DNA from: Gammaproteobacteria bacterium | GTDB taxonomy: Bacteria; Pseudomonadota; Gammaproteobacteria; JAADJB01 | Length of the DNA stretch: 64,000 nucleotides | Direction of reading: 5' to 3' | NCBI GenBank assembly: GCA_013151035.1 | Contig: JAADJB010000008.1 | Span: 11,466-75,465, forward strand | In this document: in pieces, positions 2,102-60,568 of the stretch | How positions within the stretch are numbered: position 1 is the first letter of the stretch | How the letters are laid out: the number at the start of each line of letters is the position of its first letter | Notes under the pieces: model-generated | The model's database searches: none | The model's input: the letters and a program-made list of their open reading frames with translations, nothing else | What the model was told of the DNA's origin: nothing | Made by a program: the position numbers and the translations under genes

Positions 2102-2189
2102 TCCAGTTTAAGTATCGTAAGAGTGCTTCAGTGAAAAAGGTAACGGCTTTTGCCTAGCGAACTTTAGTTTTTTAGATAGAGAATTCAAG

Positions 2190-12212: not shown

Positions 12213-12362
12213 TGAACCTTAATGTCGATAAGGGTGGTCAGCTCTCGATTTCATTGTATTCAGTCTGTTGTATCCGTATTTAAGTCTTATTTTCTCGTGT
12301 CTTTCTGGTATGATAAGGGGGTTGTGCAGGGGCTCCGATAAATAACGAGAAAAACATTCTAA

Positions 12363-14906: not shown

Positions 14907-14912
14907 AATGAT

Positions 14913-15022
14913 GGTGCGTAGTACGCACCCTACCTGGGATGTATATCTGCATTGTGAACCAATGAATATATGGTAGGGTGCGCACTGCGCACCAAATGTT
15001 TTTTTTGATAATGAGAGTGAAT
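14913..15022. repeat. inverted pair of REP elements plus T-tract (likely gyrA terminator)
   Basis: ggtgcgtagtacgcaccctacc (14913-14934) and ggtagggtgcgcactgcgcacc (14972-14993) lie in opposite orientation and are followed by T8. The 3' 50 nt are nearly identical to 47857-47905. Confidence 0.75.
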
Positions 15023-15024
15023 TA

Positions 15025-16107: not shown

Positions 16108-16123
16108 TTTCTGGAAATAAACT

Positions 16124-17287: not shown

Positions 17288-17306
17288 TCTGGAGAAGTTA
17301 ATCGGC

Positions 17307-18389: not shown

Positions 18390-18402
18390 GGACGTATTGA
18401 TC

Positions 18403-29511: not shown

Positions 29512-29789
29512 ACAGACCTTAGAATACATCTCTTGTTAATCTGTCAGATTTATCGACAAGTACATAAATCTCGATTGAAGATATAACTCATTGATAATAA
29601 AGTAAAATACCAGGGTATCAGATTCCTTTACGGTAATTCATTACATTGCTATATTACACTCTTGTTTTCAATTCACCCTATTTTATTTATAACTATTTGT
29701 TTTTTAACATGTATTGTTTAATGGCACGGTTGTTGCCCTTATTTTATTGTGAGTTGATAAAAAATAATAGTCCATAGGAGGATACGGAA

Positions 29790-30461
29790 ATGAAGATATT
29801 CAAGACACTGGCAGGTCCTGCCTTATTAATGACCACCATGGTTATTTCATCGATGGCGAATGCCTCATCACTCTCAGGTCGTCTACCTGCTACGTCAGGT
29901 GGAACTGATTATCAGGCTTATTACGATGATAATGCCGATCTGACCTGGTTGGCGGATGCCAATGCGGCTGTGAATTCTACTTATGATACTTATACTCCTG
30001 GTTCAGGCCTGATGACCTGGTTTAATGCTACCGATTGGGTCGCGAGCCTGGATGTGGCGGGTGTAACCGGTTGGCGACTACCGGTTACTGTGCAACCTGA
30101 TGCAAGCTGTAGTGTTCAAAATAGTACTTTTGGTGATTATGGCCAGGGTTGTATTGGTGGTGAGCTGGGCAATATTTTTTATAATGTATTAGGGGATACA
30201 GCTGGCTCCTTGAGTAATGTGGGTCCATTCAGCAATATTCAGTCTGGCTCCCCCTATTGGTCGACGGAGTCCGTGTCTATCCCAAGCTATGCGTGGTACT
30301 TTAGTATGGACAATGGTAGCCAGGATGCTACCGGTAAGTACGCCAAGTACTCTGGATGGGCTGTGCAGTCGGGTGATGTTAGTGCAGTGCCTGTACCTGC
30401 AGCAGTATGGTTGTTTGGCTCGGGTCTGTTGGGTCTGATGGGTGTAGCGAGACGTAAGTAG
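29790..30461 (+). CDS. PEP-CTERM sorting-domain protein with DUF1566 (Lcl C-terminal-like) domain
   Basis: Signal peptide. DUF1566-like block (TWLADANAA..WRLPVT..YWSTE..AWYFSMDNG). C-terminal VPVPAAVWLFGSGLLGLMGVARRK is a PEP-CTERM motif with TM and basic tail. Confidence 0.8.
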   Translation: MKIFKTLAGPALLMTTMVISSMANASSLSGRLPATSGGTDYQAYYDDNADLTWLADANAAVNSTYDTYTPGSGLMTWFNATDWVASLDVAGVTGWRLPVTVQPDASCSVQNSTFGDYGQGCIGGELGNIFYNVLGDTAGSLSNVGPFSNIQSGSPYWSTESVSIPSYAWYFSMDNGSQDATGKYAKYSGWAVQSGDVSAVPVPAAVWLFGSGLLGLMGVARRK

Positions 30462-38944: not shown

Positions 38945-38954
38945 GCATAGCATC

Positions 38955-39635
38955 ATGCATGCGGTTATTCGTATACTCTGTTTATTGGTGTTTGCGGTTT
39001 CTGTGGTTTACGGCAATGTTGCCAGTTTATTATTGGCTTTTTTAATCTTATTATCTTTATATCGACCCAATAAAAATTTGAGCTGGAAAACAGCCTGGCA
39101 TTATCTACGCCAGATTCGTTGGCTGTTGTTAACTATTATATTACTGTATTCCTGGGCCACACCGGGTCAGCCCCTGTTTCTTCAGTATGCCAGTTATTCA
39201 CCTTCACAAGAGGGTGTCCTGTTGGGGGTTGAACGAGGTATCAGTCTGATATTTCTATTGGCTGCTGTTTATTGGGTGTTGAATAGTATGTCTCGTCAGG
39301 AGCTTCTGGCAGCACTTCTTTTTTTATTGCGTGTTCTGCCCTTGTCGGTAGAGACAAGAACCCGAATTGCTGTCAGGGTCATGTTGAGCCTTGAATTATT
39401 ACCGCAGGTTCGAGATTATGTGAGTGACGCAATGCAAAAAATATCCGCTGCTAAAAAAAGTCGCTGGTATCAGGCTTCCTGGTTAGCGGATGTTTTTGAA
39501 AAATTATTACTGGAAATGGAACAAAAAGAACCAACATGGATTGAATTACCGGGGCAACAGGCAATTCCTTTGATACAATGGGGTTATCCTCTGCTACTGG
39601 GCGTTCTGTTCTGGATGTTGAGGTCTTATTTATAG
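38955..39635 (+). CDS. integral membrane protein (5-6 TM), possibly CbiQ/EcfT-like
   Basis: 226 aa and hydrophobic throughout. Weak resemblance to ECF-transporter T components. Otherwise uncharacterised. Confidence 0.35.
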   Translation: MHAVIRILCLLVFAVSVVYGNVASLLLAFLILLSLYRPNKNLSWKTAWHYLRQIRWLLLTIILLYSWATPGQPLFLQYASYSPSQEGVLLGVERGISLIFLLAAVYWVLNSMSRQELLAALLFLLRVLPLSVETRTRIAVRVMLSLELLPQVRDYVSDAMQKISAAKKSRWYQASWLADVFEKLLLEMEQKEPTWIELPGQQAIPLIQWGYPLLLGVLFWMLRSYL

Positions 39636-45045: not shown

Positions 45046-46410
45046 ATGAGCGGAAAGTTATTTATTAAGACCTTTGGTTGTCAGATGAATGAGTATGATT
45101 CAGCCAAAATCTCTGATGTATTGCTGGAATCACATGGACTACAGTTGACCCGGGATGAAATGGATGCGGATGTATTGTTGTTAAATACCTGTTCCATTCG
45201 GGAAAAGGCTCAGGAAAAGGTGTTCTCTCAATTGGGTCAGTGGCGTGAACTTAAAGAAAAACGTCCTGAACTGGTGCTCGGTGTCGGTGGTTGTGTCGCC
45301 AGTCAGGAAGGTGATGCCTTGCGCCTGCGTGCCCCCTATGTTGATATCATTTTTGGCCCACAGACTCTGCATCGCCTGCCGGAGATGCTCAAGCAGGTCT
45401 ATGCACAGAAAAAGCCGGTAACGGATGTCTCCTTTCCCGAGATTGAGAAGTTTGATTCTTTGCCTGCCCCGAAGGCCGATGGCCCCAGTGCCTTTTTGTC
45501 GATCATGGAGGGTTGCAGTAAATACTGTAGTTTCTGTGTCGTTCCTTACACTCGTGGTGAAGAAGTTAGTCGTCCTTTTGATGATATTATTGCCGAGGCC
45601 GTTGCCTTGTCAGAACAGGGGGTGCGTGAAATTAACCTGCTGGGACAGAATGTAAATGCCTATCGTGGCATTATGCATGATGATGAAGAGGCTGATCTGG
45701 CATTACTGATTCGTTATGTTGCCGCTATTGATGGCATTGATCGTGTGCGTTATACCACCTCACATCCAATGGAAATGACGGATAGTTTGATTCAAGCCTA
45801 TGAGGATGTGCCGGAGCTGGTGAGTCATCTGCATCTTCCAGTACAGAGTGGTTCTGATCGTATCCTCGCTGCCATGAAGCGTAATCATACCTGTCTGGAA
45901 TATAAGTCCTTAATTCGTCGCCTGCGTGCAGCAAGACCGGGTATTAGTCTATCGAGTGATTTTATTATTGGTTTTCCAGGCGAGACGGAACAAGACTTTA
46001 ATGACACCATGAAATTGATCGATGAGATGGGTTTTGATCACTCCTTTAGTTTTATCTATAGTGCTCGTCCGGGTACACCGGCTGCGGCATTGGATGATGA
46101 TATATCGTTGCCGACCAAGAAGGCACGTCTGGCACAGCTACAAACCCGTATTAGTGAATCGTCCGCAGCAATTAGTAAGGCGATGATTGGTTCGGTGCAA
46201 CGTGTATTAGTGGAAAGGCTGTCACGCAAGAATATTGCTGAAATGGCGGGTCGAACCGAGAATAACCGGGTGGTCAATTTTGCCGCAGAGCAGGGTATCA
46301 AGGGCTTGTTTGCCGAGGTGCGTATCACTGAAGCACTACCTAATTCTTTGCGTGGTGAGTTGATCTCGGTTGAACAGGCAACGACAAACAAGACGGTTCA
46401 TTATGCCTGA
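45046..46410 (+). CDS. miaB: tRNA-i6A37 methylthiotransferase
   Basis: 454 aa. N-terminal MTTase Cys cluster ([17 protein letters not shown]). Radical-SAM CSKYCSFC. C-terminal TRAM domain. Confidence 0.93.
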
Positions 46411-47377
46411 ACAGGTATCGGTTGATTTTGTACTGGAACCAAACGACACCCGTCGTTTAGCGAGTCTTTGTGGCCATCTGGATGATCACATTCGGCAGAT
46501 CGAGACCCGCCTGGGTATCGAGATCAATAATCGGGGTAATCAGTTCCGGGTGATTGGTGATGAAGGTATTATCCATGAGGCAGTGAGTCTGTTGAAGTCG
46601 CTTTATAATGAGACTGCTTCTCATGAATTGAATGCGGAAAAGATCCATCTGTCATTACAGCAGTCCAGTTTTGAGGCATTGACGGATGAGGATGATGACA
46701 AGGATGCGGCACAATGGACGGTGACTACCCGTCGAGGCAAGGTACAGGGACGTGGCCCGAATCAAAAGGCCTATGTGCGTAAGATACTCACCCATGATAT
46801 TAATTTTGGTGTTGGCCCTGCCGGAACGGGCAAGACCTATCTTGCCGTTGCTTGTGCTGTGCAAGCTTTGGAAAGGGAAGAAGTCGGACGCATTATGTTG
46901 GTACGGCCTGCGGTTGAGGCGGGTGAACGACTGGGCTTTTTACCGGGTGATCTGAGCCAAAAGGTTGATCCCTATCTACGACCTTTATACGATGCGCTGT
47001 ATGAGATGATGGGCTTTGAACGGGTTGAGCGGTTACTGGAAAAACAGGTGATCGAAATCGCGCCATTAGCTTTTATGCGTGGTCGAACACTGAATGATTC
47101 GTTTATCATCCTGGATGAAGCGCAAAATACTACGCACGAACAGATGAAAATGTTTTTAACCCGTATTGGCTTTGGTTCTACTGCGGTTATTACCGGTGAT
47201 ATTACCCAGATTGATCTTCCTCGTGCCTCGGATTCGGGGCTTGAACAGGCGACACATATCCTGAGTGGTGTAGAGGGTATCAGCTTTACCTTTTTTAATA
47301 GTCGGGATGTGGTGCGGCACCCTCTGGTTCAGCGTATTGTGCGCGCGTATGCCAGCTATGATCTACCGGCTAAATAG
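46403..47377 (+). CDS. ybeZ: PhoH-family ATPase (YbeZ)
   Basis: Walker [13 protein letters not shown]. PhoH pattern. The ATG at 46403 overlaps the miaB stop. Conserved miaB-ybeZ-ybeY-corC order. Confidence 0.9.
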
Positions 47378-47380
47378 CTT

Positions 47381-47833
47381 ATGTCATCTGATATTGTGGT
47401 TGAGGTTCAGCGTGTGCTGGACGCTATTGATCTGCCATCGGATGAACAGTTAAAGGTTTGGGTGGATGCGGGAGTTGATCAAAAATATTCTGGTTATGAG
47501 ATGGTGATTCGTATTGTCGATGAAACAGAGAGCGCCTCACTGAATGATCGTTATCGTCATAAGTCAGGTGCAACCAATGTATTGAGCTTTACGGCTGATA
47601 TACCCGAAGGAGTTGATCTACCCTTGTTAGGTGATCTGGTAATCTGTGCGCCGGTGGTTGCTCAGGAAGCAAAGGAACAGATGAAAGGTTTATCGGCACA
47701 CTGGGCGCACATGGTGGTTCATGGTGCCTTACATTTACAGGGTTATGATCATCAGGATGAGGAAGAGGCTCAAGTCATGGAATTGATTGAACGAGAGGTT
47801 TTGGAGGGTTTGGGTTTTGCTGATCCTTATTGA
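47381..47833 (+). CDS. ybeY: rRNA maturation endoribonuclease YbeY
   Basis: 150 aa with the HGALHLQGYDH zinc-binding motif. Confidence 0.93.
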   Translation: MSSDIVVEVQRVLDAIDLPSDEQLKVWVDAGVDQKYSGYEMVIRIVDETESASLNDRYRHKSGATNVLSFTADIPEGVDLPLLGDLVICAPVVAQEAKEQMKGLSAHWAHMVVHGALHLQGYDHQDEEEAQVMELIEREVLEGLGFADPY

Positions 47834-47955: not shown

Positions 47956-48798
47956 ATGAAGAAACATCGAAGTAGGCAGGCAGTATCAAAAATCAGATTG
48001 TGGATTGAACGCTTGATCCAGGTGTTGCTGGGAGGCCCCGGCAGTCGTGAAAGTCTGTTATCGATACTGCGTAGCGCACACCATAAAGATTTGTTTGATG
48101 CCGATGCATTAGCCATGATCGAAGGCGTATTGCAGGTATCCGAGATGCAGGTGCGGGATATTATGATTCCCCGATCACAGATGATTGTGGTTTTGCGTGA
48201 TGATGACATCAAGGAGTCTTTGCCACAGATTATTGAATCAGGTCATTCACGTTTTCCAGTGATAGGGGATAGTCGTGACAAGGTGGTGGGAATTTTACTG
48301 GCGAAAGATCTGTTACATGAATATGCAGAGAACGAGACCCGTTTTGATATGCATGATGTTTTGCGTCCTGCTGTTTTTGTACCCGAGAGTAAACGCCTGA
48401 ATGTGTTGTTGAAAGAATTCAGGGTGAGTCGGAACCATATCGCTATTGTGGTGGATGAGTATGGTGGTGTTGCTGGCATGGTGACGATTGAAGATGTGCT
48501 GGAGCAGATTGTTGGTGAGATCGAGGATGAGCATGATGTTGAAGATGTGAACTCAATCTTCAAACATAGTGATAGCAATTACACGCTGAAGGCATTAACC
48601 ACGATTGAAGATTTTAATGCCTATTTCGAGACCGATTTTGTCGATGATGAGTACGACACCATTGCCGGTATGATGATGCGAGAGCTGGGTTGCCTACCTA
48701 AGCGTGGGGATACCGTGACTAAAGGCAAGTATAGCTTTAAGGTGTTACGTGCTGATAATCGTAGAGTGCATGTGGTGCGGTTGACGTTGGGGGTTTGA
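47956..48798 (+). CDS. corC: CBS-domain Mg/Co efflux-associated protein CorC (YbeX)
   Basis: Two CBS domains plus a C-terminal CorC_HlyC domain. Conserved operon position after ybeY. Confidence 0.88.
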   Translation: MKKHRSRQAVSKIRLWIERLIQVLLGGPGSRESLLSILRSAHHKDLFDADALAMIEGVLQVSEMQVRDIMIPRSQMIVVLRDDDIKESLPQIIESGHSRFPVIGDSRDKVVGILLAKDLLHEYAENETRFDMHDVLRPAVFVPESKRLNVLLKEFRVSRNHIAIVVDEYGGVAGMVTIEDVLEQIVGEIEDEHDVEDVNSIFKHSDSNYTLKALTTIEDFNAYFETDFVDDEYDTIAGMMMRELGCLPKRGDTVTKGKYSFKVLRADNRRVHVVRLTLGV

Positions 48799-48987
48799 GT
48801 ATGCGACTGGAAAGACAAGAGATAACGATGACGAGCTCTCAAAATACTTGCTCTATCTGTGGTGAAGGATCTTTGTGCCTACCAAGGGTGGGTATATGAT
48901 GTAGCATGTTTGAATAGCAGATATAAATGCAGGATGAATTAGAGGAAGTATGATATTTGGTTATGTGACTGTTAGTATTAAAAAATT

Positions 48988-49410
48988 ATGATGAAAAATT
49001 GTTTAAACTGTCATTTCTTATGCGATTCATACCGTGAAGAAAATTCAGGGTGTGAATTAAAATTTTCTTTGAAGCAAGAATTGCGTGAATCACTAAAAAA
49101 CAATCCAGTAGGTTATGATAGAGGATGGCATACATTACAATGTCACATGGGAGTATGGGACGAAGGAGTCTCTCCTGTAGCTAAAGGTGAAGATACGATA
49201 CTTTTTTCCCAAGATCGAGGCTATAGTTGTTTTTTTATTCCATATCGTAAATCTATGCTTTTTCCGGCTGCAATTGAAATTCAAAAACGAGAAGAAGAAA
49301 ATAGGTGGCTCAAAAGAACCAGTACTTATACAGTAATAGGTTTATGGTTAGCGGGTATAGGGTTGATACTCAATGCTCTCGTCGCAATATACCAGGCAAT
49401 AAAATGCTAA
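48988..49410 (+). CDS. hypothetical Cys-rich protein with C-terminal TM anchor (140 aa)
   Basis: N-terminal CLNCHFLCD...GCE..LQCH possible metal-binding Cys/His cluster. C-terminal hydrophobic helix. AT-rich. Confidence 0.4.
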   Translation: MMKNCLNCHFLCDSYREENSGCELKFSLKQELRESLKNNPVGYDRGWHTLQCHMGVWDEGVSPVAKGEDTILFSQDRGYSCFFIPYRKSMLFPAAIEIQKREEENRWLKRTSTYTVIGLWLAGIGLILNALVAIYQAIKC

Positions 49411-49519
49411 CAAGAAGTTCCAGGCGGACAATTGACATCGAGGTTCGTTTGGCTACGCCAAGCCTCCCTCTCTGTCAATTCCCGCTGAGCTAGTCGTTAG
49501 GCTACAAAAGGAAAATGAA

Positions 49520-49771
49520 ATGGGTGAAAAAATAGATTATCAAAATATATCTGAAGTCGCTTATACAGATAGCAAGGAAAAAGCAAATGCCTACTTACAA
49601 TTAAGTTGGGTAATGCTTAATATAGAAAGTACGCAATATTCCGAGCATGGCTGGAACACTTCATTTGTTTTTGGTTGGTTAAAAAATAATGGTGAAATAA
49701 AATATCCAGAAAAAAGTAAATGGGAAAAAAATATGGAAGAAGAAAAAGAAGATGAGTCCATACCATTTTAA
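49520..49771 (+). CDS. hypothetical small protein (83 aa)
   Basis: Intact ORF with RBS aaaggaaaatgaaatg. Lys/Glu-rich. No motif. Confidence 0.35.
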   Translation: MGEKIDYQNISEVAYTDSKEKANAYLQLSWVMLNIESTQYSEHGWNTSFVFGWLKNNGEIKYPEKSKWEKNMEEEKEDESIPF

Positions 49772-49893
49772 AATAATTCAAAGATTTAACAAGAAAAATC
49801 AACTTCGCTTGTTCCACACGCCAGTCGTGCAAAAAGTCACGTGCTGCCTATTAAAAATATTATGTTTCTAGTGGGTTTTGACGTAGGTAAATA

Positions 49894-50502
49894 ATGAATA
49901 ACGTAACTTCTGATTTTCAAATAGGTATTAGTTACACAACGGATATACCTGAAGAAATGGTCGCTGGTTTTGAATCAGCAATTGCGATCACAGGTTTAGA
50001 TATAAAATCAGAAGCTAGAGAAGTAGATTCATATGCAGGAGTTGAATGGCTGGTGCCTACAGCAGTAATTGTTTTTATCGGGAAATCATATTTCGACGGG
50101 TTTCTAAAGGAGATGGGGAAGGAACATTACCACCTTTTTAAAAAATATATAGTTACACTGTGGGAACACTTTTTTGGTCAAGATAGAGCCGTTAAATATA
50201 ATCGGGTAAGCACCAAAGGAAAAATATTGTCACTAGATAAATATTCTCCAATATTCTCAATAATGACGGACTTGCTGCCGGGTTACCGAATTAAATATTT
50301 ATTACAAGATGATATATCACAAGCAGAATACCAAAATGCGATCGAGGAATTCTTCTCATTTCTTGAAGAGCTTGATTTTGGGGTGCTAAATAAAAATATA
50401 AAAGGGCAACTTGAAAACGCAAGATCACTTGGTGGTATTATTCTTCTTACATATGAAGAAGGTGCGTTAAAAGTGCTAAATCCAGTATCAAGAAATGAGT
50501 AA
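49894..50502 (+). CDS. hypothetical protein (202 aa)
   Basis: Intact ORF in the AT-rich island. No recognisable motif. Confidence 0.4.
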   Translation: MNNVTSDFQIGISYTTDIPEEMVAGFESAIAITGLDIKSEAREVDSYAGVEWLVPTAVIVFIGKSYFDGFLKEMGKEHYHLFKKYIVTLWEHFFGQDRAVKYNRVSTKGKILSLDKYSPIFSIMTDLLPGYRIKYLLQDDISQAEYQNAIEEFFSFLEELDFGVLNKNIKGQLENARSLGGIILLTYEEGALKVLNPVSRNE

Positions 50503-50616
50503 GATAAAGAAGCATCAAAAATACGTGGATGCGATTGTTTTAGTAATCTTGAAAAGACAATGTCCAGGATGCCATGAAAAATATAACAGCCTGATAATAA
50601 TCTATAAAGGAATACA

Positions 50617-52803
50617 ATGAAGCTGACTGATAACGAGATCAGGGATATCAATCGTCATCTTGAGACGGGTAAGCCGTTGCCGGAGAAGTATCGGTTTTTG
50701 CTGTTCGAGGACAAGAAAGAAGTCGAGCTGGTGTGGAATGGCAAGAGTGGTGATGTCTGTAATGTGGTGTTACCGTTCCAGGTGATTGAGCAGGTGGATG
50801 AGCCTCGGGCGGAAGCGGTTGTTGAATTGCAATCGGATTTGTTTGATATACAGACAGGTCGGCAGGTTACTGGCTGGAACAACAAGTTAATCTGGGGTGA
50901 TAACAAGTTGATCTTGTCGTCCCTGAAAAATGGGCCGTTGCGAGAGGAGATTGAGGCGCAGGGTGGTATTAAGCTGATCTACATTGACCCACCGTTTGAT
51001 GTGGGGGCGGATTTCAGTATGGATATTGAGATCGGTGGTGAGACGCTGACCAAAAAACCCAATGTACTGGAGGAGATTGCCTATCGGGATACCTGGGGCA
51101 AGGGGGCGGATTCATTTATTAGTATGATCTATGAACGGCTAGTGTTGATGCGCGATCTATTGGCAGAGGATGGCAGTATCTATGTGCATTGTGATTGGCG
51201 GGTGAATAGTTATATTCGATTGGTCTTGGATGAGGTGTTTGGGAAGAAATATTTTAGGAATGAGGTTGTTTGGAAAAGGCAATCACCTAGTAGCAGTAAA
51301 GCAAGAGCAAAAAAATTCAGTGCGGATCACGATACAATTTTGGTTTTTTCTAAAAATGAAAGCCCATTATTTCATCCAATATATGGGGAATATCCAAAAG
51401 AAGAAATAGAAAAAAGATTTCGTCAATCTGATCAACGAGGAAGATACAAGGATGCCGAGTTAGCCACATATTCAAAAGAAACATTTGAAAGATTAAAGAA
51501 AGAAGGTAGATTGATTGTTACAAAAGGGGGGAAATATCGATATAAAATTTATCTTCGTGATATCAAAGGTGTATTGATTGATACTTTATGGATAAATATA
51601 CCACCAGTCAATTCTCAGGCAATAGAGTCTACTGGTTATGCAACCCAAAAACCCGAAGCTCTGTTAGAACGCATCATCAAAGCCTCCTCTAATGAAGGCG
51701 ACATCATTGCTGATTTCTTTTGTGGCTCTGGTACCACTGCCGCCGTTGCCGAAAAGCTGGGTCGCAAATGGATCGTCTCCGATCTCGGAAAATTCGCCAT
51801 CCATACCACCCGTAAGCGTATGATCGGCGTACAGCGTCAACTAAAGGCTGAGGACAAAAGCTGGCGCGCTTTCGAGATTCTTAATCTGGGTAAATATGAA
51901 CGCCAGCACTATATTGGCATTAATCCTGATCTGCGCGAAGAGGAAAAGCAACAACAACTGGAGGCCAAAGAGAAGGATTTCCTGAATCTTATCCTCCATG
52001 CCTATCGTGCTGAGGCAGTAAATCAGTTTAATAGCTTTCAGGGTAAGAAGGCAGGCAGACTGGTGGCAGTGGGGCCGGTTAATCTGCCGGTGACGCGTTT
52101 GTTTGTCGAAGAGGTTATTCTGGAGTGTCGACAGAAGCATATTACCAAGGTGGATATCCTGGGTTTTGAGTTTGAGATGGGGCTGTTTCCCAATATTCAG
52201 GAAGAGGCGAAGGGTAAGGGAATCGATCTTGCGATGAAATACATCCCACGTGATGTATTTGATAAGCGGGCAATCGAGAAGAACCAGGTGGTATTCCATG
52301 ATGTGTCGTTTATTGAGGTGAAGCCGCACCTGGGTAAGGGCAAGAATAAGCACCAGATTGCCATTGAACTAACTGATTTCTCAGTATTTTATTCCCAGGA
52401 TGCAGCAAGTGCCGATACCAGCCTGAAAAACAGGAAATCGAAGGTGATTGTGGATCAGGGTCTGGTGGTCAAGATCAGCAAGGATAAGGATGGTATTATC
52501 ACTCGTGAGGTCTTGACCAAGGTATGGACGGACTGGATTGATTACTGGTCGGTGGATTTTGATTTTGAATCCAAGCAAGAGATTCTTCGGGTCAGGAATG
52601 AGGAGAGTGGTGAGACCGAGGCAGTCTGGACGGGTGATTATGTGTTTGAGAATGAGTGGCAATCCTTCCGTACCAAAAAAGACCGCTCGCTGGAACTGAA
52701 AAGTGCGTTTATGGAGTGTATGCCGGGTCGTCGGAAGGTGGCTGTGAAGGTGGTGGATATCTTTGGTAATGATACGATGAAGATTATTGAGGTGACAATA
52801 TGA
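50617..52803 (+). CDS. mod: Type III restriction-modification Mod subunit (beta-class N6-adenine DNA methyltransferase)
   Basis: Characteristic Type III Mod N-terminus (..[32 protein letters not shown]). Motif IV DPPF (LIYIDPPFD) precedes motif I FCGSGTT, the beta-class order. The region between them is the expected target-recognition domain. Confidence 0.8.
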
Positions 52804-53696
52804 CAGCGCTAAAGACTCCTAAATTCTATCGACAGCGTTTTTTGTTGTTATTGTTGGAAATGGCAGGAGGTTGCTTGTCGAAAATGGATTTTCAGAAATT
52901 ACTATTTTTGTCACAAAAAGAAGCAGGGTTTTCGTATTACGATTTTGTTCCCTACCACTATGGCTGTTATTCTTTTCAGGCACAGTCTGATATTGAGTTG
53001 CTGGGATCATTGGGTTGGTTGGAGGAGAATTCAAAGAGTATTAATTTACTTGCGAAACCAGGTGATTGTTTAAAAAGTGGTGAGCTGGATGTGATTAATC
53101 AATTTACAAAACAATTTAAAGAATACCGTGGTCGAAAACTGGTTACTTATGTATATGAACGCTATCCTTATTATGCTACGCGTAGCAAGATTGCTACTGA
53201 GATACTGGATGAAATATCATACAGGAAGGTTAGTGCAGAAAGAAATAAGTTAATTGGTAAAGATAAAGTCATTTATACCATTGGTTATGAGGGGCTTTCG
53301 TTTGAGTCTTATGTTAATCAATTGCTTAAAAGTGATGTGCGCTTATTATGTGATGTTCGTAAAAATCCGTTAAGTCGGAAGTTTGGTTTTTCCAAGGGTG
53401 TCCTTAGCCGGCTACTGCCAAAATTGGGTGTTAATTATTTACACATACCTGATCTTGGAATACGGTCGGATATGCGTCAGGAATTAAATTCGGAAGAGGA
53501 TTACAAAAAACTTTTCAGGGCTTATGTGCGGACATTGCCTCAAAAGATGGGGAGTTTGCAATTACTGAAAAGTTTACTCAATGAGCATCAAAGAATTGCA
53601 CTGACCTGTTATGAAAAGGAACATCATTCTTGTCACCGTCACTGTGTTACTGACTATTTGGAGAATAAGAGTAATATCAGGGTGCGTCATATATGA
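52800..53696 (+). CDS. two-domain protein: N-terminal Panacea-like (DUF4065/SocA-like) domain fused to C-terminal DUF488
   Basis: ATGA overlap with mod. N-terminal [40 protein letters not shown] resembles the Panacea consensus (KLqKLlY...GPy). C-terminal [36 protein letters not shown] matches the DUF488 signature (TIGhs..DVR..P.S...GI.Y.h...LG). Confidence 0.5.
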
Positions 53697-54523
53697 GCAG
53701 GATGCGAAAAGTATTTATAACTGTTAAAACATACCCAACACTTTCAAAAAAATATGCCGAACTGGTTTGTACAGCAGGTATCCTTGATGATGGAAGTTGG
53801 GTTCGTATTTATCCATTGCCATTTAGAAAGCTGGATTATGAAAAAAGATACAAAAAATATCAATGGATGGAATTGCCGCTTATTAAAAATGAGAGTGATC
53901 CTCGTCCAGAAAGTTACAGGGTAATTGATATTGATCAAGTAAAAATAGTCGGTGATCCTGTAGATACAAAACAGGGATGGCTCGAACGAAAAAATATAGT
54001 CTTTGGCAAGAATAAGACTTATTTAGATTTGGATGATCTTATTGAGAAGGCTAGTAATAATGAGCTTTCAATGGCTGTTTTCAAGCCAACTAAAATACTG
54101 GATTTGGTGATAGAAGAAGTTGACCGTGAATGGAGTAGTGAAAGTTTGGATCTTCTTAAAGCCAAAGCTAAGCAATTATCCTTGTTTCAGACAGAAGAGG
54201 AGTTAAAAAAAGAATTTTTAATTGTTGATAAATTGCCGTACAAGTTTTCATATCGATTTGAGGATTGCAAGGGAAAGCAAAGTAAATTGATGATTGAAGA
54301 CTGGGAAATAGGCATGTTGTACTGGAATTGTTTGAAACAGACAGGAAATAATGAAAGTGAAGCACTAGAACTGGTGCGAAAAAAATATATCGATGAGTTT
54401 TCTAATAAGGATTTGTTTTTATTTTTGGGTACAACCAGGCAATTCCATGGTTGGGCTAAAAATCCGTTTGTAATTATCGGGGTATTTTACCCTCCGATTG
54501 ATAATCAGATTTCTTTTTTATAG
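53693..54523 (+). CDS. hypothetical protein (276 aa) translationally coupled between the DUF488 fusion gene and res
   Basis: ATGA overlap upstream. Ends 11 nt before the res RBS. No recognisable domain. Confidence 0.45.
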   Translation: MSRMRKVFITVKTYPTLSKKYAELVCTAGILDDGSWVRIYPLPFRKLDYEKRYKKYQWMELPLIKNESDPRPESYRVIDIDQVKIVGDPVDTKQGWLERKNIVFGKNKTYLDLDDLIEKASNNELSMAVFKPTKILDLVIEEVDREWSSESLDLLKAKAKQLSLFQTEEELKKEFLIVDKLPYKFSYRFEDCKGKQSKLMIEDWEIGMLYWNCLKQTGNNESEALELVRKKYIDEFSNKDLFLFLGTTRQFHGWAKNPFVIIGVFYPPIDNQISFL

Positions 54524-54534
54524 GGAGGTCAATA

Positions 54535-57219
54535 ATGGCTCTGCATCCTGATTTTCCGGATTCGCCCCATGTTATTCTTGAACCGGATATTCGCTGGTTT
54601 CCTGCTGATGAAGCCCTGCGTGAATCCTCTTATGAGAAATTATTACCACCACTGGTACATAAGTTACGCAGGAAGGTTCAGTTATGGCGTGAGACAGGTT
54701 ATGAGGGTGCGTCCCCTACTAGCATTCATCTTTTGAACTGGTGGTTTGAGCGTGAGCATCTAATGCCAAAGTCCGATGGTTCTATGTCCACGTTTCAGTA
54801 TTACTTTGCCCAACGCGAGGCAGTGGAAACGGTGGTTTATCTTTATGATGTGGTCAAGGTAAAGGATAAATATGATCTGATCCGGTTTGATTCATCCGGT
54901 GCGGTATCAGCGGGTATGTTTGATGAGGCATGGCGGCGCTTTGTAATCAAGATGGCTACAGGTTCGGGTAAGACCAAGGTAATGAGTTTGATCCTCGCAT
55001 GGAGTTATTTTCATAAGATGTATGAAGATGATTCTGAACTGGCGCGTAACTTTCTGTTGATTACTCCGAATATCATTGTGCTGGATCGTATTCGTACGGA
55101 TTTTGATGGCCTGCGTATCTTCTTCGAAGACCCTGTGCTGCCCGATAATGGTTATGAAGGTTACAACTGGCGTGATGATTTTCAACTGACCCTGCATATT
55201 CAGGATGAGGTCAATATTACCCGAAAGATTGGCAATATCTTCCTAACCAATATTCATCGGGTTTATTCAGGTAATGATATCGAACCATCGGCGGATGATG
55301 ACGATACCATGGATTACTTTTTAGGTAAGAGGCCGGTTGGAAAGACCACTGATTCAAAGGTTGATCTGGGGGATATTGTCAGGGATATTGATGAGCTGGT
55401 CGTGCTGAATGATGAGGCACATCATATCCATGACAGTCGTTTAGCCTGGTTTAAGTCAATTGAGGATATTCATCATCGTTTGCAGCATAAAGATCGTTCT
55501 CTTTCACTGCAAATTGATGTGACTGCAACACCCAAGCACAATAATGGGGCTATCTTTGTGCAGACAGTATCTGATTATCCCTTGGTTGAGGCCATTGCGC
55601 AGAATGTGGTGAAACACCCTGTGTTGCCTGATTCTGCCAGCCGTACTAAATTGTCTGAGCGACAAAGCTCGCGTTATACCGAGAAATACGCAGATTATTT
55701 GCATCTGGGGGTTGAGGAATGGCGTAAGGCATACGGTGAGCATAAAAAACTGGAGAAGAAGGCTATCCTCTTTGTGATGACAGATGACACCAAAAATTGT
55801 GATGATGTTGCTGAGTATCTTGAGACTACCTATCCTGAGCTAAAAGATGCAGTGCTGGTCATTCATACCAGGAATAATGGTGAGGTCAGCGAGGCTGCTA
55901 GTGGCAAGAAAAAAGAGGAGCTGGAACTATTACGCAAACAGTCCAATGCGATTGATAGCTGGGAGAGTCCCTACAAGGCTATCGTTTCCGTGCTGATGTT
56001 GAAAGAGGGTTGGGATGTCAGGAATGTCACCACCATTGTGGGTCTGCGTGCTTATGGAGCCAAAAGCAATATTCTGCCAGAGCAGACCTTGGGACGCGGG
56101 CTGCGCAGAATGTATCCCGGCAATGAGGTGGAAGAATATGTCAGTGTCGTCGGTACCGATGCCTTTATGGACTTTGTTGAGTCTATTCAGTCTGAAGGTG
56201 TGGAACTTGAGCATAAGGCTATGGGTGAGGGCACTAAACCAAAAACACCGATTATTGTTGAGGTGGATAATGAAAATACCAGTAAGGATATTGAACTGCT
56301 TGATATTGAGATTCCGGTATTAACAGCAAGAATCTATCGAGAGTACAAAAACCTTGAGGATCTGGATGTCAGTTGCTTTGACTACAAGAAGGTGAAATAT
56401 AGATCCTTTAGTGAAGAAGATATGCGAGAGATTGTGTTCAAGTATGTGACCAGTAATGAGATCAGTCATACGACCTTGCTGGATTCCTGTGTGGTGACGG
56501 ATTATCGCTCTGTTATTGGTTATTTTGCTCAAATTATCATGAAGGATTTACGCCTGGTCAGTGGTTATGATGCGTTATATGGAAGGGTGAAATCCTTTAT
56601 TCAGAATGACTTGTTCGAAACAGAGATTGATCTTGATAGTATGAACACCCTGCGTAATCTATCGGAGTTAGAGGCGAGCAAAACACTGGTTGAGACCTTT
56701 AAGAAGCAGATTAATGCGCTTACGGTTCGAGATAAAGGTGATGCGGAGATCAAGGATTATATCAAGTTAAGGAAGACCCGCCCATTTGTGGTTAAGGAAC
56801 AGGGCTACCTTATTCCTAACAAAAGTATCTTTAACAAGATTATCGGTGATAGTCATCTGGAGCTGCAATTTGCCGCCTTTCTTGAAGGTTGTGAAGATAT
56901 TATTTCTTACGTAAAAAACTATCTGGCTGTACATTTTCAGATTGATTACGTTAATGCCGATGGCAATATTTCAAATTATTATCCTGACTTTATTGTTAAG
57001 TGCTCTTCAAGCTCAGTAATTATTGTAGAAACCAAGGGGCTTGAGGATCTTGATGTACCCCTTAAGATGGAGCGATTACGCGAGTGGTGTGTCGATGTTA
57101 ACAAAGCACAATCGGTTATTCATTATGATTATGTATTTGTTGATGAGGAAGGTTTTAATCAATATCAGCCTAAAACCTTTCAGACATTGATGTCAGGTTT
57201 CAGGGGATATAAGGCTTAA
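54535..57219 (+). CDS. res: Type III restriction enzyme Res subunit (SF2 helicase plus C-terminal PD-(D/E)xK nuclease)
   Basis: RBS gggagg. Helicase motif I MATGSGKTKV, motif II LNDEAHHI, motif VI QTLGRGLRR. C-terminal nuclease motif YYPDF...IIVETKG. Confidence 0.8.
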   Translation: MALHPDFPDSPHVILEPDIRWFPADEALRESSYEKLLPPLVHKLRRKVQLWRETGYEGASPTSIHLLNWWFEREHLMPKSDGSMSTFQYYFAQREAVETVVYLYDVVKVKDKYDLIRFDSSGAVSAGMFDEAWRRFVIKMATGSGKTKVMSLILAWSYFHKMYEDDSELARNFLLITPNIIVLDRIRTDFDGLRIFFEDPVLPDNGYEGYNWRDDFQLTLHIQDEVNITRKIGNIFLTNIHRVYSGNDIEPSADDDDTMDYFLGKRPVGKTTDSKVDLGDIVRDIDELVVLNDEAHHIHDSRLAWFKSIEDIHHRLQHKDRSLSLQIDVTATPKHNNGAIFVQTVSDYPLVEAIAQNVVKHPVLPDSASRTKLSERQSSRYTEKYADYLHLGVEEWRKAYGEHKKLEKKAILFVMTDDTKNCDDVAEYLETTYPELKDAVLVIHTRNNGEVSEAASGKKKEELELLRKQSNAIDSWESPYKAIVSVLMLKEGWDVRNVTTIVGLRAYGAKSNILPEQTLGRGLRRMYPGNEVEEYVSVVGTDAFMDFVESIQSEGVELEHKAMGEGTKPKTPIIVEVDNENTSKDIELLDIEIPVLTARIYREYKNLEDLDVSCFDYKKVKYRSFSEEDMREIVFKYVTSNEISHTTLLDSCVVTDYRSVIGYFAQIIMKDLRLVSGYDALYGRVKSFIQNDLFETEIDLDSMNTLRNLSELEASKTLVETFKKQINALTVRDKGDAEIKDYIKLRKTRPFVVKEQGYLIPNKSIFNKIIGDSHLELQFAAFLEGCEDIISYVKNYLAVHFQIDYVNADGNISNYYPDFIVKCSSSSVIIVETKGLEDLDVPLKMERLREWCVDVNKAQSVIHYDYVFVDEEGFNQYQPKTFQTLMSGFRGYKA

Positions 57220-57285
57220 TATCGGTATTTTGTATTTATGTAGCAATATGCTACAATATAGGTCGTATTGTAGCGAGGTGTACTG

Positions 57286-57678
57286 ATGTCGACTCCACTC
57301 AGGGTAAATGACCGTCTTTTTAAGGATGCCGAGGCGGAGGGTTCTTTAATGAATCGCTCAACAGCCAAGCAGGTTGAGTTTTGGGCCGAGCTAGGCAGAC
57401 GTGTAGCTCCTTCGGTATCACCCGCAAATATGCTGGCATTGATGCAGGGGATTGCACAGGTGCATATTGAGATACCTGACTTACAGCCGGTAAATCCTGA
57501 TCATGTTTTCGATGTGGTTGATAAAGCCAGTGCATCGGGTTTACTGGGTCAGCAGATTACACAGGGTGGCTTGTATTATGAGGTGAGTAAAACCCAACCA
57601 GGGTTGCTGGATCAGGTTATGCCCGATGGGCAACGCCTTGCGGGACGTTTCAATAGTGGTTTATTTATCCCTGAATGA
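57286..57678 (+). CDS. ParD-like (PF11903-type) RHH antitoxin
   Basis: MSTPLRVNDRLFKDAEAEGSLMNRSTAKQVEFWAELGR N-terminus. ATGA overlap with the downstream zeta-like toxin. Confidence 0.6.
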   Translation: MSTPLRVNDRLFKDAEAEGSLMNRSTAKQVEFWAELGRRVAPSVSPANMLALMQGIAQVHIEIPDLQPVNPDHVFDVVDKASASGLLGQQITQGGLYYEVSKTQPGLLDQVMPDGQRLAGRFNSGLFIPE

Positions 57679-58259
57679 ATGTGGATAAACAGCTTTGGTT
57701 ATTAGCGGGTGGTAACGGAGCAGGTAAATCAACCTTCTACCAACAGTTTTTGGCAACAACGGAATTACCCTTTATCAATGCCGATATACTTGCCCGGCAA
57801 CTTGATGCTGAGAATAGCGAAGCGATTAGTTATAAGGCAGCAAGGCTAGCTGAAAAACTACGAACGGATTTATTACAATCAGGTGTCAGTTTTTGTTTTG
57901 AAACGGTTTTCTCTCATCCATCAAAGATTGATTTTTTAGCACAAGCAAAATCATTGGGCTATGAGATTATTTTGGTTTATATCCATCTACAAACAGATGA
58001 ATTGAACCAGGCGCGTGTTATGCAACGTGTGAAACAGGGTGGGCATAATGTGCCTATGGATAAGATTATTAGTCGTATCCCAAGAACAATGTCCTATGTT
58101 AGTGATGCATTGCCTCTGGTTAACCGGGCGGTATTTTATGATAATTCATTACACAGCCAGCCATTTTTATCCGTGGCATCGCTGTTTGCAGGGCAGTTGC
58201 AGAAGCATGTGAAGCCATTACCTGATTGGGCGGAGAAGATGTTGGTGAATTACATTTGA
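57675..58259 (+). CDS. zeta-toxin-like P-loop kinase (AAA/zeta family) toxin
   Basis: Walker A LLAGGNGAGKST and zeta/PezT-like fold length (194 aa). Paired with the upstream ParD-like gene. Confidence 0.7.
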   Translation: MNVDKQLWLLAGGNGAGKSTFYQQFLATTELPFINADILARQLDAENSEAISYKAARLAEKLRTDLLQSGVSFCFETVFSHPSKIDFLAQAKSLGYEIILVYIHLQTDELNQARVMQRVKQGGHNVPMDKIISRIPRTMSYVSDALPLVNRAVFYDNSLHSQPFLSVASLFAGQLQKHVKPLPDWAEKMLVNYI

Positions 58260-58933
58260 TTGCGGTTTTTTCTGATTCCAAACAGCCCGATTAAACCCGA
58301 GATCAAAAGCCAGGCGCTTGCGGGCAGGGGTACAATTGCTAAACCATATTGTATGTGATCAACTTCTATGTTGTTGACGCTCCCTCTATCCGAAATGAAT
58401 ATCTTTGATATACCGCCTGCATTGCTTACGCCGAGAAAGCGATCCTCAGCTGTCGTTCCATTAAAACTGTAATCACCTAAAGTAGCTGTCAAGACACCCA
58501 GAGAGGCTCCATTTTGATCAAATGCCTCAAAATCAACCAGGCTATTCGGTGTGCCATCGGTCCATACCAGGCCGGCTCGGGTTGGAAAACCACCAAGAAT
58601 ATTGGTGTCAAATGTAAAGGTCATACTCGTTGGGTCGTAAATACTGGTGGCATTGCCACCGTTACCGTTAATGACGCCATTGTCTATATCGACTGAATCA
58701 CCGGAAGGCCCTTTATAAATGATACCTTGATTAACGCTGAGCCCAGGGGTGTTCAGTTGCTGGTCTTCGAAGTCTTCCAGATAAAACCAGGAGAAAGTCT
58801 CTCCGGAAAAGGGGCTGTCACCTGAACTCAGATAGGGCGATGGCCCGAGTAATGCCGCTGATGTGACTGTGGACAAGATAAAAAGACAGAAACCTGTAAC
58901 GGTATTTATTAGGTGATGATATTTGCGTGTCAT
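58250..58933 (-). CDS. PEP-CTERM sorting-domain secreted protein
   Basis: Signal peptide. Gly/Asn-rich body. C-terminal VPLPASAWLLISGLIGLFGIRKNRNQM PEP-CTERM motif. Confidence 0.8.
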   Translation of the reverse strand: MTRKYHHLINTVTGFCLFILSTVTSAALLGPSPYLSSGDSPFSGETFSWFYLEDFEDQQLNTPGLSVNQGIIYKGPSGDSVDIDNGVINGNGGNATSIYDPTSMTFTFDTNILGGFPTRAGLVWTDGTPNSLVDFEAFDQNGASLGVLTATLGDYSFNGTTAEDRFLGVSNAGGISKIFISDRGSVNNIEVDHIQYGLAIVPLPASAWLLISGLIGLFGIRKNRNQM

Positions 58934-59020
58934 TGGGATATCCCCTTGATTATTCGTTTTTTATATGAGATCCATCTTCCAGTAAAAGTCTAGCTGATAT
59001 CGATTGTTTGTCAATTTCGC

Positions 59021-60568
59021 GTGGGTCTGTCATATAATTGTGTGATGGATATCCTTTTGTCTCAGCGTGAACCTGTAAAAAACCTGTTGGCACTGTTTAG
59101 CGGCCTGCTAATCCCATTGGCCTTTGCGCCTTATTCATACGGTCTGCTGGTGTTGCCTGCGCTGGCACTGTTTTTCTATCTGTTGGAGTCATGCTCGGCT
59201 CGGCAGGCTTTTGTGCGCGGTTGGTGTTTTGGTCTGGGTCTGTTTGGTGCCGGTCTGTACTGGGTTTATATCAGTATCCATTTTTATGGACATGTCGGTA
59301 TCTTTCTCAGTGTGGCAGTGACCTTTGCCATGGCGGCTCTGTTGGCATTATATCCGGCTATCTTTGCCTGGTTGGTGGTACGTTTCAAGCCGGTTATGCC
59401 CGGCCTTCGACTGGTACTGTTGATGCCGGCTGTCTGGTTATTAATGGAGTGGACTAAGGGCTGGTTGTTTACTGGTTTCCCCTGGTTGACCCTGGGTTAT
59501 ACGCAGATTGATACCGCGCTAGCGATGTATGCACCGATTGTCGGGGTCTATGGTCTGTCTCTTTTATTGGTGATGCAGGCAGGGGTGTTGACCTGGGTGC
59601 TGGTGGTGGGTCGTCGTGCTGTGTTAATGGGCGGGCTGATTTTCGCCTTGATTTGGCTGCCTGCCTTATTGTTCGATGAAGTGCAATGGACGCAGGCCTT
59701 GGGTGAACCGATAGCGGTGAGTCTGGTGCAGGGCAATGTTGATCAGAATGATAAATGGAATCCATCATTACGTGGGGAATTTATCAATCAATATCTTGAG
59801 ATGAGTCTGGGACATCTGGATAGTGACATTATCGTATGGCCAGAGACTGCCATCCCGGCCTTTTATCATCAGCTTGAATCTTCAGTGATTGCTGAACTGG
59901 ATCGTCTCGGCAAGAACTCTGGTACCAGTTTTCTAGTGGGTGTCCCGGTGCTGGATCAACAACGATGGGACTATTTTAATGCCGTTGTGGCACTGGGTCA
60001 GGGGCAAGGCACTTACTACAAAAATCATCTAGTGCCCTTTGGTGAATATCTACCTCTGCGGCAATGGCTTGGCACCTTATTACATTTTATGGATATCGAG
60101 ATGGGAGACTTCAGTCGGGGCGGGGTCTCACAACCATTGATTCAGGCCGCAGGTTTACCGGTGAGTGTGTCGATTTGTTACGAAGCGATCTTTGAAACGG
60201 AACGTCTGAGCGATCTGCCCGAGGCGGCCTTGTTAGTGAATGTGAGTAATGATGCCTGGTTTGCAGATTCATCTGCCCCGCATCAACATCTGGAGATGGT
60301 GCGTATGCGTGCGCTGGAGGCGGGACGTTGGGTGTTGCGTGCAACCAATACCGGGATTACGGCGATTATTGATGAACGGGGCAGGGTTGTAGCGCGTGCG
60401 CCACAGTTTGAGGTCTATGTGTTGGATGGACAGTTACAGCCGCGCAGTGGGGCAACCCCCTTTGTTATCTGGGGGAATATCCCTGTGTTGGTGTTGGTGG
60501 GGCTGATTTTGTTGGGTTGCGCGACAAGCCCACTGTTCAGGCTTTTCGGCATGAAGAAGGTTAGGTGA
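59021..60568 (+). CDS. lnt: apolipoprotein N-acyltransferase
   Basis: 515 aa. N-terminal multi-TM region plus a C-N hydrolase domain (E..K..C triad region ICYEAIF). Follows corC in gene order. Confidence 0.9.
   Translation: MGLSYNCVMDILLSQREPVKNLLALFSGLLIPLAFAPYSYGLLVLPALALFFYLLESCSARQAFVRGWCFGLGLFGAGLYWVYISIHFYGHVGIFLSVAVTFAMAALLALYPAIFAWLVVRFKPVMPGLRLVLLMPAVWLLMEWTKGWLFTGFPWLTLGYTQIDTALAMYAPIVGVYGLSLLLVMQAGVLTWVLVVGRRAVLMGGLIFALIWLPALLFDEVQWTQALGEPIAVSLVQGNVDQNDKWNPSLRGEFINQYLEMSLGHLDSDIIVWPETAIPAFYHQLESSVIAELDRLGKNSGTSFLVGVPVLDQQRWDYFNAVVALGQGQGTYYKNHLVPFGEYLPLRQWLGTLLHFMDIEMGDFSRGGVSQPLIQAAGLPVSVSICYEAIFETERLSDLPEAALLVNVSNDAWFADSSAPHQHLEMVRMRALEAGRWVLRATNTGITAIIDERGRVVARAPQFEVYVLDGQLQPRSGATPFVIWGNIPVLVLVGLILLGCATSPLFRLFGMKKVR

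Follow-up and report, generated by a model that had tools for sequence, protein, structure and literature searches.

A probable mosaic defence islet with a four-gene Type III restriction cassette between corC and lnt in a gammaproteobacterial genome

Defence hotspots flanked by core genes have been described in bacteria; Pseudomonas aeruginosa, for example, has its core defence hotspots, and the Escherichia coli pan-genome has integration hotspots. Defence genes may also be nested within one another; classically, PrrC in the Type Ic EcoprrI locus is a back-up held in check by the restriction–modification (RM) proteins. PrrC is almost exclusively embedded in Type I RM systems, and the PDC systems, which were predicted by “guilt by embedding”, are candidates and predictions only (Payne et al., bioRxiv 10.1101/2024.01.29.577857). 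Here we analyze a 64-kb stretch of contig JAADJB010000008.1 (the window; all coordinates are positions within it), which belongs to a metagenome-assembled genome of a gammaproteobacterium and in which 10.2 kb of DNA separate the core genes corC and lnt. We consider it probable that these 10.2 kb are a small, horizontally acquired mosaic defence islet, which was probably assembled from several independent modules and is now unable to move by itself. The modules would be the three genes orfA–orfC, a four-gene Type III RM cassette in which the candidate pair PDC-M19A/B (a DUF488 protein and orfX) lies between mod and res, a pair of ParD-like and zeta-like genes, and possibly a lineage-specific gene for a VPLPA-CTERM surface protein (Table 1).

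An earlier note, written from the nucleotide sequence without database searches, had described the stretch as about 10.2 kb of DNA inserted into the widely conserved gene string miaB-ybeZ-ybeY-corC-lnt, and both the string and the insertion were borne out by comparison with related genomes. The distance from the corC stop to the lnt start is 10,222 bp and is occupied by ten open reading frames (ORFs). For the comparison, a CorC scan restricted to one genome per GTDB species yielded 80 loci, mostly from Thiogranum, Thiohalobacter, Chromatiales and Ectothiorhodospiraceae-like gammaproteobacteria, with CorC identities of at most 67%; the gap between corC and lnt in these relatives was inferred by tblastn with the window proteins, and matches of the island proteins were counted at E <= 1e-5. 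Both corC and lnt were found in 78 of the 80 loci, with a median inferred gap of 26 bp; the gap was 300 bp or less in 75 of these 78 and reached 1,150 bp at most. In the other two, lnt is missing: the contig of L039 breaks off right past corC, and L054 is rearranged. Across all 80 loci, tblastn with the ten island proteins gave no match at less than 10 kb from corC, and the claimed insertion thus withstands the comparison that could have counted against it, as no relative has the island gene content between corC and lnt. Downstream of lnt, a DUF1451 gene on the minus strand is followed by leuS, an order that recurs in many relatives. Order-level synteny with these genomes, the closest of which have 65–67% CorC identity (a metagenome scan with Lnt gave two loci, at 40% identity), points to a formerly empty site.

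The same flanks bear on the possibility of an assembly or binning artefact, in which a chimeric contig would carry 10 kb from another organism or from part of the population. The source is a metagenome-assembled genome and the composition shifts at both edges of the stretch, as would be expected of such a chimera; however, both flanks keep the conserved gene order and orientation, so that a chimeric contig would have had to be joined precisely at two points to give back this synteny, and there is no repeat at the borders that could have misled an assembler. We therefore regard an artefact as very unlikely.

Extra DNA at the junction was also observed in two of the 80 loci. L034 has an extra 1.15 kb (1892–3041) with a single unannotated ORF between corC and lnt, and L054, from Aquisalimonas (10849–20783), has an Ada-like methyltransferase gene and a porin-like gene after corC, as identified by eye from ORF translations. 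Neither locus carries defence genes, and the idea that corC–lnt is a recurrent hotspot was therefore rejected on the evidence of these loci.

Some, but not all, of the usual hallmarks of a genomic island were found. The stretch is absent at the same site in relatives (distant ones, with CorC identities of at most 67%), and its composition is atypical, owing to some of its genes only; a tRNA or tmRNA neighbour, an integrase, recombinase or transposase, and flanking att-type direct repeats are missing. In particular, ARAGORN detected no tRNA or tmRNA gene in the whole window, an Rfam search (E-value mode) over 47.5–60 kb gave no match, and no integrase, recombinase or transposase domain was found in any island ORF with the hidden Markov model (HMM) libraries of Pfam, NCBIfam, PADLOC and PHROGs. 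Terminal repeats were looked for by a repeat search over 48500–59400 and by comparing the longest common word with 300 shuffles for four border pairings, namely three possible right borders, each paired with the left border, and the cassette's own edges, paired with each other. No direct or inverted repeat exceeded chance: the longest exact border words were 6–8 nt, a length reached by 93–297 of the 300 shuffles. The intergenic gaps within the island are 190 bp or shorter, too short to harbour a decayed recombinase gene. These results agree with the earlier note, which had seen no integrase, tRNA or clear terminal repeats and had proposed the alignment of the borders, where only chance-level pairs came to light. 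Its description of the stretch as a genomic island holds for an insertion that breaks the corC–lnt linkage and not for a single element, as the islet probably consists of at least four modules that differ in composition and in relatives.

The base composition of the stretch supports a mosaic rather than a uniform structure. Measured against non-overlapping 10.2-kb segments across the window, the stretch is the lowest in GC, at 41.05% against a mean of 46.7 ± 1.35% and a minimum of 43.65% elsewhere, which places it about 4 standard deviations under the mean. On average, then, the stretch is the lower-GC island that had been described, yet the low GC is uneven and comes from certain modules only. 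Relative to a GC content at third codon positions (GC3) of 0.458 ± 0.05 in the host, GC3 is low in orfA–orfC (0.23–0.26), in the DUF488 gene (0.34) and orfX (0.31), and in the zeta gene (0.37), and it is host-like in mod (0.49), res (0.44), parD (0.44) and the VPLPA gene (0.44). The dinucleotide signature is elevated over 49–55 kb, a level that two other parts of the window equal.

These two parts, at 9001–12000 and 37001–39000, show dinucleotide delta* values of 104–120, being as distant from the window average as the island is, and have normal GC; one of them falls in a 1,791-aa ORF (6837–12212). In addition, an 885-aa hybrid sensor kinase (dCache, PAS, HisKA, HATPase and receiver domains) is encoded upstream of and near miaB, on the minus strand at 41817–44474, with a GC content of 37%. 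Its GC3 of 0.315 matches the lowest genes of the island and is far under the host mean, and this gene may represent a second foreign or fast-evolving segment.

The cassette of mod, PDC-M19A, PDC-M19B and res had been read as a four-gene Type III RM operon, a reading that stands for mod and res, by family and by motif, and that has to be revised for the two middle genes, which are a PADLOC candidate pair. Mod combines methyltransferase motifs with a specificity segment and Res combines helicase motifs with a PD-(D/E)xK nuclease, as is characteristic of Type III RM, and the catalytic motifs are intact in the translations (DPPF and FCGSG in Mod; GSGKT, DEAH and PD...ETK in Res). Several matches of Res are weak or below the model cutoff: RE_endonuc was matched at E 2.5e-4 and 21.3 bits, under the 23.4-bit cutoff; PADLOC REase_III was matched weakly, at E 2e-18; and the NCBIfam model for the BPTD_3080-family restriction endonuclease was matched at E 1e-79, below its cutoff. 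The four genes are tightly packed, with overlaps of 4 nt each between mod and PDC-M19A and between PDC-M19A and PDC-M19B, and res begins 11 nt past PDC-M19B.

The same gene order (mod, DUF488 gene, orfX, res), with the same overlaps, was found in loci L081, L083, L084, L087, L088 and L092, and the neighbourhoods of these cassettes are unrelated. They include a tyrosine-recombinase set with PhdYeFM and AAA_13 genes, a P22-portal remnant (L083), a viral contig and, in L084, a recombinase-free chromosomal site between yebC-ruvCAB and an aldehyde dehydrogenase gene. When the island was run by blastn against five of these loci (L081, L083, L084, L087 and L088), the similarity to the closest cassette copies, of about 76% nucleotide identity, was confined to 50609–57183 with a break at 51242–51636, and none of the flanking island genes was in common with any of the five. 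As the homology is limited to the cassette and no flanking gene is shared, the islet appears to be a mosaic of separately derived modules. The break within mod would agree with an exchange of the target-recognition domain, which would give Mod another methylation specificity. At the protein level, the cassette products are 71–86% identical to proteins named from Thermodesulfobacteriota and Nitrospinae, far above the identity of the host CorC to its best relative.

The inner pair differs from its partners in codon usage. In four of the seven cassettes (the window, L083, L084 and L092), including one locus with 57% GC, the GC3 of the inner pair is 10–20 points below that of mod and res, a pattern that is absent in L081 and L087; the identity ranks of the four cassette proteins across loci are congruent. 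Different codon constraints, or a separate replacement of the pair, are possible explanations of the low GC3.

In L081 (966–5011), L087 (160–4205) and L088 (232–4277), genes for a 438-aa Phage_integrase-like protein and a 910-aa Integrase_2/INT_rpt protein were observed upstream of the cassette. These three loci also have a GreA/GreB-like gene upstream and a gene for an 870-aa AAA_13 ATPase downstream of res, and the recombinase neighbourhood has the appearance of an integrative element with the cassette as its cargo.

Such neighbourhoods raise the possibility that the whole stretch is the remnant of a single integrative element, for example one with a tyrosine-recombinase trio, which inserted at corC–lnt and later lost its recombinases and ends. 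The three closest cassettes, whose orfX products are 85–86% identical to that of the window, lie 0.8–2 kb downstream of a Phage_integrase and Integrase_2 (910 aa) set, together with PhdYeFM and AAA_13, and the P22-portal remnant near the L083 cassette points in the same direction. The homology, however, ends at the start of mod and near the end of res, and the recombinases, the GreA-like gene, PhdYeFM and AAA_13 have left no trace in the window. Terminal repeats are lacking, the gaps are too short for pseudogenes, and the L084 cassette occupies a chromosomal site without recombinases. A single decayed element is thus improbable in our view, and a mosaic of modules accounts better for the stretch.

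The identities of the cassette also bear on whether the arrangement could be ancestral, or the product of a local rearrangement, with native genes that other lineages lack and without any horizontal acquisition. This seems hardly credible when unrelated contigs hold copies of the cassette with 76% nucleotide identity, and when the 71–86% identity of the cassette proteins far exceeds that of CorC to any relative; in addition, corC and lnt are tightly adjacent in 75 of 78 loci across many gammaproteobacterial lineages, and phages and plasmids carry the inner pair. What would agree with ancestry is the host-like GC3 of mod, res, parD and the VPLPA gene, the presence of a second protein with a VPxPA-type tail elsewhere in the window, and the rearrangement of the junction in L054, where the linkage is lost, and in L034, with its extra DNA.

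The two inner proteins match the PDC-M19A and PDC-M19B models of PADLOC over their full length and are encoded by adjacent genes, as expected of the components of a PDC-M19 system. No mention of PDC-M19, or of DUF488 combined with Type III restriction, was found in the literature searched; an apparent DUF488 match in a review of SGNH hydrolases proved to concern DUF4886. The family is large, with at least 7,377 orfX homologues, the top one being the source protein itself (locus tag GXP22_01015, on a 148-kb contig), and in 19 of 23 context loci a DUF488 gene lies directly upstream of orfX on the same strand. The pair occurs without Mod or Res in 12 of 14 IMG/VR viral loci; among the viral carriers, one is a Mu-like phage in which portal, Mu-F and tail-S genes are present, and a second has genes for a prohead protease and a primase. 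Distant homologues were found on plasmids of Rhizobium, Burkholderia and Sulfolobus, and in Gordonia phages near genes for immunity repressors and integrases. Nesting in Type III RM is limited to a subclade in which orfX is at least 71% identical to the window copy. Judging from these genomic contexts, PDC-M19A/B appears to be a two-gene module that is autonomous and is also carried on its own by phages and plasmids.

Two of the context loci deserve description. In Gordonia phage Eviarto (L091, 3018–4822), the orfX homologue gp43 comes right after the “immunity repressor” gp44 and near the integrase, a position that assigns the family to the part of a temperate phage genome that is expressed in lysogeny. 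In a 5.16-Mb genome (L082, 4783–10831), the DUF488/orfX pair follows a gene for a 1,416-aa protein without a Pfam domain, and Mod and Res are absent; the pair thus has another partner there.

Structure prediction suggested folds for both proteins. The AlphaFold2 (AF2) model of PDC-M19A (M19A; predicted local distance difference test, pLDDT, 91; predicted TM-score, pTM, 0.88) has an N-terminal winged helix and helical region and a C-terminal alpha/beta DUF488 domain. The latter is modelled with a phosphatase/rhodanese-type fold resembling that of protein tyrosine phosphatases, and the former as a winged helix similar to the C-terminal part of DarG (Panacea-like). A profile of 38 M19A homologues had a DarG chain as its best PDB match, which was weak (E 0.25) and covered positions 25–99 with the motif QKLxF...DFxPxxYGxYS, and the sole Pfam match of residues 1–155 was SocA_Panacea, below threshold at E 0.067. 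The invariant residues of M19A include C270 and a C278-H-R-H-C282 cluster. For PDC-M19B (M19B; pLDDT 80, pTM 0.80), Foldseek gave a full-length match to Teb1 with its tandem OB folds (E 9e-4, TM 0.26–0.34), an architecture like that of telomere proteins, and M19B is predicted to bind single-stranded DNA (ssDNA). On the models, these resemblances are at the level of folds and do not amount to family membership.

According to Burroughs and Aravind, in work from 2023, DUF488 reportedly belongs to a clade with RapZ-C and DUF4326 in the rhodanese-phosphatase superfamily, and a role in the processing of DNA ends is said to have been predicted. It is conceivable, although we consider it doubtful, that the pair is a DarTG-like toxin/antidote system with ssDNA or DNA ends as its target and with the Type III enzyme under its guard. 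In that case, M19B would bind ssDNA ends and block or damage them; the DarG-C-terminal-like domain of M19A would serve to restrain M19B, its DUF488 phosphatase-fold domain might undo the lesion, and inactivation of Mod/Res by a phage would lift the restraint.

The remaining modules are smaller. The ParD-like/zeta-toxin pair described in the earlier note was confirmed, as the Pfam models of both proteins are matched above cutoff; the two genes overlap by 4 nt, and a kinase domain with an antitoxin gene upstream is the arrangement expected of a zeta module. The zeta-like gene and the following VPLPA gene are convergent, their 3′ ends overlap by 10 nt (58250–58259), and no spacer or terminator lies between them. 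The VPLPA-CTERM signal is a variant of PEP-CTERM, and the protein shows the motif, the hydrophobic helix and the basic tail of such a sorting signal (tail IVPLPASAWLLISGLIGLFGIRKNR). A second 227-aa protein with a VPxPA-type C-terminal tail is encoded at 29778–30461 on the plus strand; its likeness to the protein of 58250–58933 is limited to the tail (44% over 32 residues). Such proteins suggest that the host has an exosortase-type sorting system. With its host-like composition (GC 45.8%, GC3 0.44) and the second VPxPA-tail protein in the window, the VPLPA gene may be a gene of the lineage and not foreign DNA; a PEP-CTERM protein is thus present as had been stated, but its place in the foreign DNA is doubtful.

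At the other end of the stretch, orfA, orfB and orfC, none of which had a match in the four HMM libraries, had been regarded as orphans, a description that may suit orfB only. For orfA, homologues were found in 355 representative clusters at E <= 1e-3, 118 of these at E <= 1e-10, and for orfC, 97 homologues occur sporadically, including in Dechloromonas, Enterobacterales, Pseudoalteromonas and Methyloprofundus. These homologues indicate that orfA and orfC are members of conserved unannotated families; orfB, with no similarity detected in the four libraries, is an unproven, putative gene. In one other genome, the orfC homologue adjoins genes for Mrr, BrnT and HicB, and at this locus orfC is not linked to orfA or orfB.

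Table 1. Features at and around the corC–lnt junction of the window.
Feature	Position	Strand	Evidence and remarks
miaB	45046-46410	+	Pfam
phoH/ybeZ	46370-47377	+	Pfam
ybeY	47381-47833	+	Pfam
corC, left flanking core gene	47956-48798	+	Last of the miaB-phoH-ybeY-corC string; Pfam CorC_HlyC, CBS, NMB0537_N
Left border, intergenic	48799-48987		189 bp; sole ORF inside has 32 codons and CxxC, 48801-48899
orfA	48988-49410	+	140 aa; Cys-rich N-terminus, hydrophobic C-terminal helix; GC3 0.255
orfB	49520-49771	+	83 aa; GC 30%, GC3 0.226
orfC	49894-50502	+	202 aa
mod, Type III methyltransferase	50617-52803	+	Pfam N6_N4_Mtase E 8e-47; PADLOC MTase_III E 1.7e-111
Variable target-recognition segment of Mod	~51242-51636		blastn break against related cassettes
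PDC-M19A (DUF488 protein)	52800-53696	+	Winged helix and C-terminal DUF488; PADLOC E 1.3e-101, model 2-292 of 294
PDC-M19B (orfX)	53693-54523	+	Tandem OB fold; PADLOC E 9.2e-114, model 3-268 of 269
res	54535-57219	+	Superfamily 2 (SF2) helicase with C-terminal PD-ExK nuclease; Pfam ResIII E 8e-15; PADLOC REase_III; RE_endonuc
ParD-like antitoxin	57286-57678	+	Pfam ParD_like 29.7 bits, cutoff 23
Zeta-toxin-like P-loop kinase	57675-58259	+	194 aa; Pfam Zeta_toxin 48.8 bits, cutoff 22.3; AAA_33; Walker A GNGAGKST
VPLPA-CTERM secreted protein	58250-58933	-	227 aa; hydrophobic N-terminus; NCBIfam TIGR03370 30.7 bits, cutoff 25.35
Right border, divergent intergenic	58934-59020		87 bp; between the VPLPA gene and lnt
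lnt, apolipoprotein N-acyltransferase, right flanking core gene	59021-60568	+	Pfam LNT_N, CN_hydrolase

The insertion would also affect the expression of lnt. As relatives have about 26 bp between corC and lnt, co-transcription of lnt with the genes upstream of it is probable there; in the window, lnt would have to be transcribed from the 87-bp divergent region or by read-through across the antisense strand of the VPLPA gene. The true start of lnt may be the ATG at 59046. A single promoter-like site on the minus strand was found in the right border, which says nothing of function, and the scan for promoters and terminators was uninformative, with counts at shuffle expectation (31 against 29.2, and 10 against 8.0). 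At the left border, the short plus-strand ORF directly 3′ of the corC stop (MRLERQEITMTSSQNTCSICGEGSLCLPRVGI) could be the remnant of a zinc-ribbon gene or a chance ORF.

Taken together, the islet qualifies as a defence island, as the Type III RM system, PDC-M19A/B and the ParD-like/zeta pair lie within 7.6 kb. We propose that Mod would methylate the host copies of a short asymmetric site, with the variable middle segment setting the specificity, and that Res would cut unmethylated incoming DNA. M19A/B may act on ssDNA or DNA ends, M19B by binding ssDNA through its tandem OB folds, and M19A by acting through its DUF488 phosphatase-fold domain while contacting its partner through the DarG-C-terminal-like domain. 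The pair could then be a second, toxin/antidote-like defence layer that backs restriction, in analogy with PrrC and DarTG, or an accessory for DNA-end processing, and the toxin–antitoxin pair would probably help to retain the islet. The DNA may have arrived, probably not in a single step, through recombination in which no site-specific recombinase took part, either by homologous exchange via the conserved flanking genes or by stepwise illegitimate insertion; either route would cut lnt off from its upstream operon.

Several points weigh against a horizontally acquired mosaic. That the site was once empty, and likewise when and how many times DNA was inserted, is deduced from relatives whose best identities are 67% for CorC and 40% for Lnt, and a single event and several cannot be told apart by composition alone. 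The mod, res, parD and VPLPA genes are host-like in GC3, which may reflect either long residence with adaptation or a donor of similar composition. In addition, the closest relatives of the cassette adjoin tyrosine-recombinase genes, and the islet, with both of its junctions, comes from a metagenome-assembled genome.

Small defence islets that interrupt a conserved gene order are a known kind of feature, and the present one indicates that the corC–lnt adjacency, which dozens of gammaproteobacterial lineages share, can be lost in the absence of an integrase, a tRNA or repeats. A useful lead is the cassette of mod, PDC-M19A, PDC-M19B and res, which recurs as a coupled unit in unrelated genomes, and the predicted folds would give concrete hypotheses for a candidate defence system that has so far been only a database entry. 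If the toxin/antidote interpretation of the inner pair were true, the cassette would be a two-layer unit of restriction and abortive infection, widespread across phyla, phages and plasmids, and a first function would be assigned to this DUF488 clade.

In comparison with known systems, the islet resembles the defence islands flanked by core genes in being a variable and atypical cluster of restriction, candidate-defence and toxin–antitoxin genes between housekeeping genes, with no mobility genes; unlike the defence hotspots, corC–lnt shows no recurrence among the 80 relatives. The ParD-like/zeta pair resembles epsilon/zeta modules in having an antitoxin gene followed by a P-loop kinase toxin gene, with a 4-nt overlap and Pfam models above cutoff, and it differs in its ParD-like antitoxin and in its toxin of 194 aa, which is shorter than classical zeta and matches AAA_33 nearly as well. 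The restriction genes agree with the Type III systems EcoP15I and EcoP1I, in which an N6/N4 Mod with a variable centre and a Res with an SF2 helicase and PD-ExK nuclease are encoded in one operon, mod then res; in contrast to classical Type III systems, two translationally coupled genes lie between mod and res, and Res is closer to the BPTD_3080-family model, although below its cutoff.

The inner pair shares with PrrC the nesting of extra genes in an RM operon. PrrC is an ABC-ATPase/HEPN RNase, whereas here DUF488 and tandem-OB proteins form a two-gene module in a Type III system, and their functional link to Mod and Res is hypothetical. Unlike the components of DarTG, M19A has a DUF488 phosphatase fold and no macrodomain, and M19B has no DarT (DUF4433) domain in Pfam searches, so that the pair is not a member of that family. 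Like other PDC systems, the M19 pair is nested inside a known defence system, and in this locus and in six others the host system is Type III RM, with a fixed gene order and overlapping start and stop codons.

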